Shown piece by piece: positions 56,708 to 64,000 of a stretch of DNA of 64,000 nucleotides. The notes beneath the pieces were generated by a model, which ran no database searches, was not told the DNA's origin, and saw only the letters and a list, made by a program, of their open reading frames with translations. Made by a program: the position numbers and the translations under genes. How positions within the stretch are numbered: position 1 is the stretch's first letter; each line of letters opens with the position of its first letter. Location of the stretch: positions 79,396 through 143,395 of the forward strand of contig PKXY01000026.1 in assembly GCA_003132505.1 (NCBI GenBank), read 5' to 3'. Origin of the DNA: Solirubrobacterales bacterium (lineage in GTDB: Bacteria > Actinomycetota > Thermoleophilia > Solirubrobacterales > Solirubrobacteraceae).

Positions 56708-57103
56708 TCAGACGCGCCGGCGCTTGCGTGGACGGCAGCCGTTGTGGGCTTGCGGTGTGACGTCCTTGACGCCGGTGACCTCGAGGCCGGCGGCCTGGAG
56801 CGAGCGAATCGCGGTCTCGCGCCCGGAGCCCGGGCCCTTGACGAAGACTTCGACCTTCGAGAGGCCCTGCTCCATGCCCTTGCGCGCAGCGGCGTCGGCC
56901 GTGACCTGAGCGGCGAACGGCGTCGACTTGCGCGAGCCCTTGAAGCCGGCGCCGCCGGCGGACTCCCAAGCGATCACGTTGCCCTGCTGGTCGGTTAGAG
57001 AGACGATCGTGTTGTTGAACGAGGTCTTGATGTGCGCCTGGCCGACGGGGATGTTCTTCTTGACCTTGCGACGGCCGCGCGCCGGGCGCCTCGGTGCCGG
57101 CAT
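56708..57103 (-). CDS. rpsK: 30S ribosomal protein S11
   Basis: [44 protein letters not shown]. Confidence 0.96.
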
Positions 57104-57486
57104 TACTTCTTACCGGCTTTCTTCTTGCCGGCGACCTGCATCCGCTTCGGGCCCTTGCGCGTGCGGGCGTTGGTCTTCGTGTTCTGGCCATGGACGGGGA
57201 GGCCGCGGCGGTGGCGGAGACCCCTGTAACAGCCGATCTCCGTCAGGCGCTTGATGTCCTGGGACACCTCGCGCCGAAGGTCGCCTTCGACCGTGAGGTC
57301 CTGGTCGATCGCGTCACGAAGCTGCGTCACCTCGTCCTCGGTGAGGTCGCGGACGTAGGTGTCAGGCGAGATCCCAAGCTCCGCGAGCAGTTTGTTGGAC
57401 TGCGGCCGACCGACCCCGTATATGTAGGTCAGGCCGATCTCAACGCGCTTGTTGAGCGGAAGGTTGACACCCGAAATACGCGCCAT
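57103..57486 (-). CDS. rpsM: 30S ribosomal protein S13
   Basis: [26 protein letters not shown]...[23 protein letters not shown]. Confidence 0.96.
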
Positions 57487-57489
57487 CGA

Positions 57490-57603
57490 CTAGCCCTGGC
57501 GCTGCTTGTGGCGCGGGTTCTTGCAGATCACGAGCACCGTCCCGTGACGCCGGACGATCTTGCACTTCTCGCACATCGGCTTGACCGACGGTCGAACTTT
57601 CAT
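57490..57603 (-). CDS. rpmJ: 50S ribosomal protein L36 (37 aa, below ORF-track cut-off)
   Basis: Hand translation gives [37 protein letters not shown]. The stop lies 3 nt before the rpsM start. Confidence 0.93.
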
Positions 57604-57691: not shown

Positions 57692-58498
57692 TCAGATGGC
57701 CCGAGCGCGACCCACAATGCTAGCAAGCCCACCATCTGCCGCGTCGTCACGGTGCCAGGGGGTAAGGATCCGCGGTCCGTCGAGCGTTATTGCGACGGTG
57801 AACTCGAAGTGTGCGGCCAGTGATCTGTCGGTTGAGTAGATCGCCCACCCGTCCTCGCCGGTTTGCACGTCGATCGTCCCCGTCGTCGTCATCGGCTCGA
57901 TTGCGAGCACCATCCCCTCCTGCAGGCGCGGCCCCTTGCCGGGCTCGCCGAAGTTCGGTATCTGCGGATCCTCGTGCATGCTGCGGCCGACTCCATGGCC
58001 TACGAGCGAGCGCACGACCGCAAGGCCATCGCCCTCCGCGGAGGCCTGGATCGCGTGCGAGACATCGCCGAGCCGGTTGCCGGTAACGCACTGCTCCACC
58101 CCGCGAAATAGCGATCGCTCAGTTGCTTCGAGCAGATGCGATGCGAGCGCGCTGACGGGACCCACGGGCAGGGTACGCGCGGCGTCGGCGACCCAGCCGT
58201 CGAGCGTAACGCCGACGTCGAGCGATATCACGTCGCCGCGCTCGAGCCGGTAAGGACCGGGAATCCCGTGCACGATCATCGAGTTTGGCGAGGCGCAGAT
58301 CGAGCCGGGGAAGCCGCGGTAGCCCTTGAACGTCGGGATTGCACCCTGCGAGCGGATGTAGCGTTCGGCGGCCTGGTCCAGCTCGGCGGTGCTGACGCCC
58401 GGACGCACCTGGCGCTCGAGCAGGCGAAGGGTGCGGACGAGGATCTCGCCTGCAGCGCCAATCGCGTCTATCTCCGCCGGGGATTTGCGGATGATCAA
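57692..58498 (-). CDS. map: type I methionine aminopeptidase
   Basis: The metal ligands are in context (ISLDVGVTLDGWVADAA, VGHGVGRSMHE, LAIEPM, HFEFT). Confidence 0.93.
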   Translation of the reverse strand: MIIRKSPAEIDAIGAAGEILVRTLRLLERQVRPGVSTAELDQAAERYIRSQGAIPTFKGYRGFPGSICASPNSMIVHGIPGPYRLERGDVISLDVGVTLDGWVADAARTLPVGPVSALASHLLEATERSLFRGVEQCVTGNRLGDVSHAIQASAEGDGLAVVRSLVGHGVGRSMHEDPQIPNFGEPGKGPRLQEGMVLAIEPMTTTGTIDVQTGEDGWAIYSTDRSLAAHFEFTVAITLDGPRILTPWHRDDAADGGLASIVGRARAI

Positions 58499-61232: not shown

Positions 61233-61435
61233 GTCGTTGGCTCTTCGACGTGAACTAGGTGGCGGACACGGTGGAGCATGCCGCGGATCTGCGGACCGTC
61301 GGCGACCCCCACGGTGTGACCGATGCGGCGCAGACCGAGTGAGCGAAGCGTCGCGAGCTGGGCTTTGTCAGCGCCGTTGCGCGAGCGGGTTTGCGTGACG
61401 CGGATGCTCGCGTCGGACTTGGCGCTCGGGCTCAT
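61229..61435 (-). CDS. rpmD: 50S ribosomal protein L30
   Basis: [32 protein letters not shown]. Confidence 0.9.
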
Positions 61436-62013
61436 GTCTTCGCCTCCTCGGCTGGGCGGTCGGCGCCGCCTTTGGCGGCCGTCGCACCGACCCGCTTGTC
61501 TTCGAGGCCGAGCACCTGGGCGACCGACAGGCCGCGAAGCTCGGCAACCTCGAGCGGCGTACGAAGGCTCTTGAGGCCATCGACCGTCGCCTTCACGAGG
61601 TTGATCGGATTCTGTGAGCCGAGGCTCTTGGAGAGGATGTCATGGATCCCGGCCAGCTCGAGCACGGCGCGGACCCCGCCACCGGCGATCACGCCGGCAC
61701 CGGGAGCCGCCGGCTTGAGGAAGACCCTGCCGGCACCGAACACGCCGGTCGTCTCGTGGGTGATCGTCGAGCCGTACTTGGGCACGCGGAAGAGCGACTT
61801 CTTGGCCTGCTCGACGCCCTTCTGGATCGCGAGCGGAACCTCGTTCGCCTTGCCATAGCCGACGCCGACGATCTCCTTCTCATCGCCCACGACCACTAGC
61901 GCCGTGAACGAGAACCGCCGCCCCCCCTTGACGACCTTGGCGACGCGGTTGATCTCGACGACGCGCTCCTGGAGGTCAAGTCCGGCGGCACTGACTGTTC
62001 GATCGATTCGCAT
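61432..62013 (-). CDS. rpsE: 30S ribosomal protein S5
   Basis: [27 protein letters not shown]...[19 protein letters not shown]. Confidence 0.96.
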
Positions 62014-63353: not shown

Positions 63354-63539
63354 TTACCACGATGACTTCGTCATGCCCGGGATCTGCCCCTGGTGCGCCA
63401 TCTCGCGCAGACAGATCCGGCAGAGGCCGAACTTCTTATACACCGAGCGTGCACGGCCGCAGCGGTTGCAGCGGCTGTACCCGCGTGTCTTGAACTTGGG
63501 GGTGCGCGCCTGTCGCACTCGTTGTGAGGTCTTGGCCAA
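63354..63539 (-). CDS. rpsN: 30S ribosomal protein S14, zinc-binding type Z (TTG start)
   Basis: The 61-aa protein contains [23 protein letters not shown]. The TTG start is preceded by AGGAG, which overlaps the rplE stop codon. Confidence 0.93.
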
Positions 63540-63548
63540 TTTGTTCTC

Positions 63549-64000
63549 CTAATCTGTTTCGTCTGGCGACGAAGCAGATTCGTCGTCCTCTGGCGGAGCA
63601 GCCGCGTCGGCGGGCGCCTCCGTGCTGTCTTCGGGCGGAGGCCCGGTGATCTCCTCGACGAGGATCTCCTCGGCGATCACGTTTCCGGAGAGGTCCTCGA
63701 CAATGATCTCCTCGATCACCGCGGCCGGCGCGCCGGACTCGTCCTCGACGAGCACCTCTTCGACGATCAGCTCGCCGACCGGGTTGCCCGCGTCATCCTC
63801 GAGCACGCTGCCCGAGACGATGCCGACCGGCTCGCCGCTCAGGTCCTCGACGACGAAGTCCACGTTCGGCTCGACTGCTGCTGCCTCCGGCTTCGGCGCG
63901 GTTGCCACCTCGGGCTCGGGTTCGGCCTCGGGATCGCCAGGGAGCTTCGGGCGGCCTTCCTGTGAGAAGGGGAAGCCGAAGGCCTCGAGCAGGGCGAACG
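63549..64000 (-). CDS. rplE: 50S ribosomal protein L5 (3' part; 5' end beyond window) with long acidic repeat C-terminal extension
   Basis: The minus-strand frame entering at nt 64000 reads ...FALLEAFGFPF (the uL5 C-terminus). It then continues without a stop for ~138 codons to the TAG at 63551..63549. The tracked ORF (63549..63908) is only the part after an internal GTG. Confidence 0.8.
   Translation of the reverse strand, partial: FALLEAFGFPFSQEGRPKLPGDPEAEPEPEVATAPKPEAAAVEPNVDFVVEDLSGEPVGIVSGSVLEDDAGNPVGELIVEEVLVEDESGAPAAVIEEIIVEDLSGNVIAEEILVEEITGPPPEDSTEAPADAAAPPEDDESASSPDETD

Follow-up and report, generated by a model that had tools for sequence, protein, structure and literature searches.

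A long acidic, repeat-built C-terminal extension of ribosomal protein uL5 in Solirubrobacterales

Ribosomal protein uL5 occupies a highly conserved and crowded site, at the 5S ribosomal RNA (rRNA) and central protuberance, where the bridge with the 30S head is made and the A-site finger lies close by. The ribosomal protein extensions described so far are mostly basic or of mixed charge, touch rRNA or adjacent proteins, and stay stable across a genus; acidic tails on the ribosome surface include the poly-Glu that RimK adds to bS6 and the acidic C-termini of archaeal and eukaryotic P-stalk proteins. Here we describe a 138-residue acidic C-terminal tail of uL5, encoded at the edge of a 64,000-nucleotide (nt) stretch of DNA, hereafter the window, from a Solirubrobacterales bacterium (assembly GCA_003132505.1, contig PKXY01000026.1, positions 79,396–143,395, forward strand). 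The encoding organism is a member of the Actinomycetota (class Thermoleophilia, order Solirubrobacterales) from soil or peat.

The closest described system is the 70S ribosome from Cutibacterium acnes (PDB 8crx, chain f), in which a 31-residue uL5 extension could be traced passing between H84 and the A-site finger, H38, at their tips (PMC10085706). Lineage-specific extensions of bacterial ribosomal proteins have also been described for uL4, uL22, bS16 and uS5 in C. acnes or mycobacteria (PMC10085706). In eukaryotes, the acidic loop of the uL5/uL18 chaperone Syo1 places a short helix in the β-sheet groove of uL5 and blocks premature binding of H84 (PMC10442235). Solved uL5 chains have 158–258 residues, the longest bacterial one being that of C. 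acnes (210), and in phmmer searches none of them aligns more than ~8 residues past the FPF that closes the uL5 C-terminal domain. The match to 8crx_f itself covers query residues 1–55, which by alignment extent is ~8 residues past FPF (SQEGRPKL), and leaves the remaining 130 residues without a counterpart. A search of the full-text literature found no description of a long acidic uL5 tail, with C. acnes as the only relevant precedent. A previous sequence-only reading of the window had called a long polyanionic appendage at this site unexpected; this holds in that no solved bacterial uL5 exceeds 210 residues, but the C. acnes extension is a precedent of the same kind.

A tail in frame with uL5

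On the minus strand, positions 63549–63998 of the window translate as 149 codons followed by a TAG at 63551..63549. The open frame (63998..63552) comprises the last 11 residues of uL5, FALLEAFGFPF (63966..63998), with the remainder of rplE lying beyond the window edge, and then the 138-residue tail; no stop codon follows FALLEAFGFPF in the window frame, and the translation is identical to the peptide quoted in the sequence-only reading, whose sequence description is borne out. That reading had also placed the TAG within the AGGAG Shine-Dalgarno sequence of the TTG-initiated S14 gene, an arrangement evident from the stop context (GAT-TAG-GAG-AAC-AAA-TTG) and repeated in four homologous contigs, L001, L002, L083 and L084. 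As only the last 11 residues of the uL5 domain fall within the window, the identification of uL5 rests on gene order and on homologous contigs with a uL5 core in the frame of the tail. The genes after the tail on the minus strand are S14, S8, L6, L18, S5, L30, L15, SecY, Adk and Map, and because they follow the canonical spc operon order, the incoming gene is taken to be rplE; contigs L084 and L085 have the order L14-L24-L5-(S14)-S8-L6-L18. The same 11 residues occur in the protein P0001, which matches PF00673, and in the full-length rplE of L084, and in alignments they fall at the C-terminus of every solved uL5 chain. With the uL5 core of survey locus L004 joined to the window tail as a composite query, 54 solved uL5 chains were matched at E-values of ~1e-52 to 1e-71.

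A fragment search against 5.8 billion protein clusters returned two relatives. P0001 (contig L001) joins the uL5 C-terminal domain (PF00673) to the tail in a single frame, and P0002 (contig L002) is the tail by itself. A metagenome scan with the tail as query added L083 and L084, and a profile search added L085 (source samples of L001, L002, L083 and L084: JGI 3300037145, 3300014201, Ga0181534 and Ga0302325). In L083, 106 residues of uL5 core run in frame into an L002-type tail, and L084 holds a complete 319-residue rplE, with 183 core residues and a 137-residue tail of the same layout as that of the window. The homologous tail is thus present in five contigs beside the window, in three of which (L001, L083 and L084) it is in frame with uL5, the outcome that the sequence-only reading had proposed to look for in relatives; the other two carry indels. 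A 1-nt deletion in a C-run of L002, 70 nt from the contig end, splits the uL5 frame from the tail frame, and because L083 has the same tail variant in frame, we regard it as an error. L085 has an L084-type tail with two frameshifts, and because the L6 gene on that contig is also split, these look like indel errors typical of long reads. Intact copies differ by indels whose lengths are divisible by three, such as one of 30 nt in L001. Going by the shared reading frames, the tail is a genuine C-terminal extension of uL5 and part of the same protein, and an assembly artefact or missed stop was rejected on the strength of six contigs including the window, three of the others with a uL5 core in frame.

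For the tail to be instead a separate small acidic protein, translation would have to begin at the internal GTG at 63908, or the fusion would have to stem from a missed stop or frameshift after GFPF. The list of open reading frames (ORFs) does begin at this GTG, gene callers have produced stand-alone tail proteins (P0002, 126 residues; P0012, 77 residues), a splitting that the sequence-only reading had anticipated, and the L002 deletion lies between the end of uL5 and the tail. Yet there is no stop between uL5 and tail in the window, L001, L083 or L084, and the two contigs that break the frame are those with the probable errors just described, an indel contradicted by L083 in one and a split L6 gene in the other. 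Moreover, the 30-nt in-frame linker deletion of L001 takes out the GTG, and L084 also lacks it, so an independent gene starting there is unsupported. We consider this alternative extremely improbable. The repeat core of the tail has a GC content of 0.76/0.30/0.94 at codon positions 1/2/3, a pattern characteristic of genuine genes in high-GC genomes. The remaining two minus-strand frames contain stops across the tail, and plus-strand frame 0 is open across its entire length (63540..63965) and would encode a Leu/Asp-rich peptide; this frame is open because Val, Ile and Leu codons are reverse complements of Asp and Glu codons. An antisense gene was rejected, as the codon-position GC of this frame is that expected of the reverse complement of a gene rich in GC at third positions (GC3). 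Predicted diagnostic tryptic peptides of the tailed uL5 are LPGDPEAEPEPEVATAPK and one ending ...FGFPFSQEGR.

Parts, predicted fold and constraint of the tail

The 138 residues of the tail include 27 Glu, 13 Asp, 18 Pro, 17 Ala, 16 Val, 2 Lys and 1 Arg, giving 29% Asp+Glu and a net charge of −37. All three basic residues lie within the first 25 positions, as the sequence-only reading had noted, and its count of about four units of ~15 residues agrees with four copies of the motif [VIL]E[DE]x[SA]G, spaced by 16, 18 and 16 residues. The observed core repeat statistic and the four motif copies were each reached in 0 of 1000 composition-preserving shuffles, and the DNA has direct repeats with a period of 48–54 nt. 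Four parts can be distinguished, all on the minus strand. The 11-residue anchor SQEGRPKLPGD (63933..63965) holds the Arg and Lys of the tail except K25. It is followed by an acidic Pro/Ala/Glu linker, PEAEPEPEVATAPKPEAAAVEPNVD (63858..63932), which contains the GTG at 63908; by a 71-residue repeat core with a net charge of −20 (63645..63857), made of four to five ~16-residue hydrophobic/acidic units (h-h-V-E-D-x-S-G-x-P-V-G / V-I-E-E-I-I); and by an acidic Pro/Ser/Thr-rich C-terminal segment, GPPPEDSTEAPADAAAPPEDDESASSPDETD (63552..63644).

AlphaFold2, given an alignment of three sequences, predicted six β-strands over fragment residues 48–116 with a predicted local distance difference test score (pLDDT) of 78–86, while pLDDT was below 50 across most of the flanks, including the linker, and 44–56 in the C-terminal segment. 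With a single sequence as input, hairpins were predicted at pLDDT 52–73. On these models the tail probably consists of a conserved anchor, a disordered acidic linker, a small and very acidic β repeat module and a disordered acidic end. It therefore does not fit a wholly disordered acidic tail, or entropic bristle, being only partly disordered with a core predicted as strands; the earlier description of a polyanionic tail is right as to its strong acidity, but a featureless polyanion is unlikely for the repeat core, which is probably folded. Foldseek found no significant match to the model in the PDB (best E-value 0.068, TM ≤0.3), and the best Pfam match, to PF21785 (five-fold beta-flower), scored 13.3 bits against a cut-off of 38 (E-value 0.077). 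A profile search of 1.84 billion representative proteins returned only nine giant adhesin-like proteins sharing a local hairpin-like motif, and these repeat proteins were rejected as homologues.

Comparison with L084 places the constraint unevenly along the tail. Over its whole length the window tail is 53% identical to that of L084, with a ratio of nonsynonymous to synonymous divergence (dN/dS) of 0.59 and a dS of 0.60, whereas S14, S8, L6 and L18 are 97%, 93%, 94% and 86% identical, with dN/dS of 0.05–0.10 and dS of 0.45–0.77. The anchor is 91% identical (dN/dS 0.08) and the linker 25%; dN/dS is 0.6–0.7 in the repeat core and ~0.8, with low dS, in the C-terminal segment. In a four-sequence alignment the turn Gly and Pro residues P57/G59, G71, G89/P91 and G105 (fragment numbering) are invariant, as are many hydrophobic and acidic positions of the units. 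By these comparisons the tail is a lineage-specific, repeat-driven extension under weak constraint.

Turnover across the clade and competing explanations

The wider distribution of uL5 tails was surveyed with an S8 probe against one genome per GTDB species, which gave 80 loci with S8 identities between 92% and 62%. For nearly all of them the label is Solirubrobacterales, Solirubrobacteraceae or Thermoleophilaceae, with only a broader one for a few, and almost all are metagenome-assembled genomes (MAGs); the source genome of the window is not among them. In each locus uL5 was located by tblastn and read on to its stop, the tail being the residues after GxPF. Tail length ranged from 5 to ~230 residues, and most of the 80, short-tailed genomes among them, have an xxGRP motif after FPF. 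In a neighbour-joining tree of S8+L6+S5, which is rough and carries no support values, the clade of the window (with L002 and L003–L006) has long tails only (99–169 residues), its sister clade mixes long (114–231) with short (24–51) tails, and the outer clades have tails of 11–25 residues. Two further groups in the tree have ~70-residue tails with a shared conserved charged motif, AEAEQAALEQLKAENPEAYE; tails of this type, unlike the hypervariable ones, occur in L039, L064, L067, L072, L076, L079 and L081, from Thermoleophilaceae-like and some Solirubrobacterales genomes. In the two isolates of the survey the tails have 15 and 23 residues.

Net charge is negative in all 17 intact tails of at least 97 residues, from roughly −11 to −71. 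Most are rich in Glu, Ala and Pro, and some contain (V/I/L)-A-E-E-type repeats. Among the survey tails none could be aligned with that of the window; alignable tails came from L084 and L085. Frameshifts occur inside the repeats of L003, L024 and L032, after which the acidic frame resumes, reaching the conserved C-terminus in L024 and L032; the other frames of the same repeat DNA in these loci are Arg/Pro/Ser-rich and are never seen in intact genes. The frameshifts found in the tails of public MAGs and contigs are probably long-read or contig-end indel errors. They affect L003:9120-9760, L024:9310-9900, L032:9290-10060, L085:2740-3460 and L002:1-90, and yield truncated uL5, Arg-rich false tails and orphan 'hypothetical proteins'.

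The most direct view of turnover comes from L031 and L034, which are 98.8% identical over 480 residues of S8+L6+S5 and have tails of 114 and 24 residues, respectively. The difference is a 90-residue block of tandem AADPEVPVSVAEP-type units, AADPE(V/A)P(V/A)S(V)AE, from which it follows that in-frame tandem duplication builds the tails and that their gain or loss is very rapid. The sequence-only reading had proposed that a lack of the tail in close relatives would point to an artefact; some close sister-clade relatives do lack a long tail, and the cause is real gain and loss of repeats. Within the range of the survey, the window tail exemplifies a hypervariable feature of the clade as a whole and is not peculiar to this genome.

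Overall, the explanation that we favour, and consider reasonably probable, is a genuine tandem-repeat-grown acidic uL5 extension that acts through charge and bulk. As a structure it is well supported, and comparison of the tails shows growth by in-frame tandem duplication at the 3′ end of rplE, between the 11-residue anchor and the last few codons. In the lineage of the window the inserts have matured into acidic disordered linkers flanking the four to five ~16-residue units, which are predicted to form a small β-hairpin sheet with ~20 net negative charges. By homology with C. acnes, the anchor would exit the central protuberance between H84 and H38, at their tips, and the remaining ~125 residues may form a tethered polyanion outside the central protuberance, beside the 30S head. 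Action, as we infer it, would be via charge and bulk and not through a specific catalytic or RNA-binding role, and could take either of two forms: the tail may cover the basic H84-binding groove of uL5 before assembly, in cis, much as the Syo1 loop does, or it may repel or attract charged partners at the interface of the central protuberance with the 30S head. An RNA-rich surface would tolerate only negatively charged repeats. Since sister species have lost or never gained the tail, it is not essential.

Several observations weigh against this explanation, and a serious rival to it is a functionless, nearly neutral appendage, in which replication slippage in GC-rich codon repeats lengthens and shortens a solvent-exposed terminus, selection removes harmful versions such as basic ones that stick to rRNA, and acidity is the mark of that filter. 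Gain and loss of the tail between near-identical species fits such an appendage equally well, as the 24- and 114-residue tails of genomes 98.8% identical in neighbouring ribosomal proteins illustrate, and a tail dN/dS of ~0.6 is what would be expected of one; in the sister clade long tails are interspersed with short ones, close relatives have tails that do not align with one another, the linker is only 25% identical to that of L084, and uS3 of the same genomes has a similarly variable low-complexity tail. In addition, the L005 tail is Ser/Ala/Pro-rich and weakly acidic, so strong negative charge is not universal, and all long-tail carriers found are uncultured MAGs or contigs. The β-sheet prediction comes from three sequences only, is weaker with a single sequence and has no structural match, and the placement at H38 and H84 is extrapolated from a distant actinobacterium via an alignment of ~8 residues. 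On the other side, all seven sampled members of the window's clade retain a long tail, and at 53% identity and a dN/dS below 1 the core keeps its unit architecture, turn Gly and Pro residues and hydrophobic positions. That only uL5 and uS3 vary in this way within the S10-spc-alpha cluster suggests tolerance or use specific to these sites rather than a genome-wide trend. We see a neutral appendage as possible, though less probable, and retain the extension acting through charge and bulk.

A different role for the same DNA was also considered, in which S14 translation is set by the structured 3′ part of the rplE messenger RNA (mRNA), through coupling or through masking of the Shine-Dalgarno sequence, with no more than an incidental peptide. 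The stop codon is embedded in the S14 Shine-Dalgarno sequence, and L084 keeps the ...DETD end, the TAGGAG and the TTG start of S14. The conserved C-terminus of the sister clade, ...EKESxD, has the coding sequence GAGAA(A/G)GAGAGC...GAC-TGATG, that is GAGAAAGAGAGC...TGATG, a purine-rich Shine-Dalgarno sequence with a stop overlapping the start, and the conservation of the last few tail residues is explained by this doubling of the 3′ end as the S14 start region. The last 31 tail codons have a GC3 of 0.61 and show 0–1 synonymous differences among the three closest sequences. A predicted hairpin, AUCUGC-UUCGUC-GCCA-GACGAA-A-CAGAU (63552..63579, minus strand), abuts the stop and Shine-Dalgarno sequence and forms part of the minimum-free-energy fold of 63500..63650 (z-score −2.25); its sequence is identical in the window, L001 and L002, giving no covariation evidence, and L084 carries a single mismatch in it with no compensating change. 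The hairpin may contribute to the coupling of S14 translation to rplE. Four-fold-site divergence among the window, L001 and L002 is also lower in the tail (6–12%) than in S14+S8 (24–29%; Fisher p 0.0002, 0.08 and 0.03).

This RNA-level account, however, covers only the last 10–30 codons. The repeat core folds no better than shuffled RNA (z −1.2; S8 control +0.26), and structured mRNA was rejected as the explanation of the core on that ground. Against L084 the dS of the tail equals that of its neighbours, and long-term synonymous constraint was likewise rejected because the four-fold-site deficit is gone in this comparison; the deficit at close range may reflect chance, or recombination across the tail. 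Selection on the peptide is indicated by codon periodicity, by indel lengths divisible by three and by conservative amino-acid replacements. We judge an incidental peptide very improbable.

Neighbouring genes, the uS3 tail and known systems

The gene next to rplE, rpsN, encodes a short 61-residue zinc-ribbon S14 (63354..63539, minus strand) and is taken from the ORF list; its TTG start, at 63539, lies 9 nt past the rplE stop, and its homologues in L001 and L002 match PF00253. The L15 ORF (60660..61232, minus strand) has 190 residues, with a GTG start that abuts the L30 stop and ~35 extra N-terminal residues, and the S5 ORF (61432..62013) runs ~30 residues past the C-terminal end of its Pfam domain. 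The uS13 of the window (57103..57486) is of normal length, and uS13 was rejected as a co-extended partner of uL5. In many bacteria infA, the gene for IF-1, sits between map and rpmJ; it is absent between map (57692..58498) and rpmJ (57490..57603) on the minus strand of the window.

Another tail was seen on uS3. In essentially every survey locus that covers rpsC (66 related loci), uS3 ends in a Gly/Arg-rich tail of the RGG type (GGGRGPGGPGG) of 55–432 residues, examples being L050:6416-7321 (Paraconexibacter antarcticus), L063, L004 and L007; uS3 of the source genome lies outside the window. Variable C-terminal overhangs occur only on uS3 and uL5 in the S10-spc-alpha cluster. The lengths of the two tails correlate negatively (Spearman −0.56, p 9e-7, n=66) in raw values uncorrected for phylogeny. 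An acidic uL5 tail on the 50S central protuberance and an RGG-type uS3 tail on the 30S head, both hypervariable, of low complexity and opposite in charge, could interact within or between ribosomes or with RNA, the folded acidic core of the window's lineage serving as a dedicated docking module for the basic tail in a tunable electrostatic switch. We regard this as very improbable; if true, such a two-tail switch might serve ribosome clustering, hibernation or condensates in bacteria that face desiccation and starvation.

At a site as conserved as that of uL5, an entire clade of abundant soil actinobacteria tolerates, and in part maintains, 100–230 extra acidic residues and remodels them over very short evolutionary times. 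Bacterial ribosomal proteins can thus bear fast-evolving "expansion segments", of a kind usually linked to eukaryotic rRNA and proteins. The long, short and absent tails of these species form a natural series for probing the effect of charged appendages on assembly, subunit joining and dormancy. The tails regularly suffer from mis-annotation, being called as separate hypothetical proteins or frameshifted in long-read MAGs. With rplE a standard marker in phylogenetics, this bears on annotation as well as on marker-gene pipelines.

Among known systems, the C. acnes uL5 extension is the nearest: both organisms belong to the Actinomycetota, and in both the extension begins right after the ...FPF of the uL5 C-terminal domain. 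The C. acnes extension has 31 residues, no repeats and no long polyanionic part, whereas the tail described here has 138 residues (up to ~230 in relatives), a net charge of −37, a repeat core and large variation from species to species. It resembles ribosomal protein extensions in general as a lineage-specific terminal addition to a universal protein, such additions being often disordered in maps and on the solvent side, but is unlike them in being strongly acidic, built of repeats and gained or lost between near-identical species. The Syo1 loop is likewise an acidic, flexible segment associated with uL5 and offers a functional model, by analogy, for a shield in cis; Syo1 itself is a separate, eukaryotic HEAT-repeat protein that acts in trans and has no sequence relation to the uL5 tail. 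The poly-Glu of bS6 and the P-stalk tails share with it the form of a negatively charged, flexible C-terminal segment. They differ in being much shorter and at other sites, the 30S platform and the GTPase-associated stalk, and the stalk tails end in a conserved factor-binding motif; apart from the end dictated by the S14 Shine-Dalgarno sequence, no stalk-like motif was seen in the uL5 tail. Bacterial ribosomal proteins with lineage-specific extensions, and a short uL5 extension in another actinobacterium, were already known. The new element is the coming together of four traits: a length of 100–230 residues, a strong negative charge, an origin in tandem repeats with turnover at the species level, and, in the window's lineage, a conserved, probably folded acidic repeat module.

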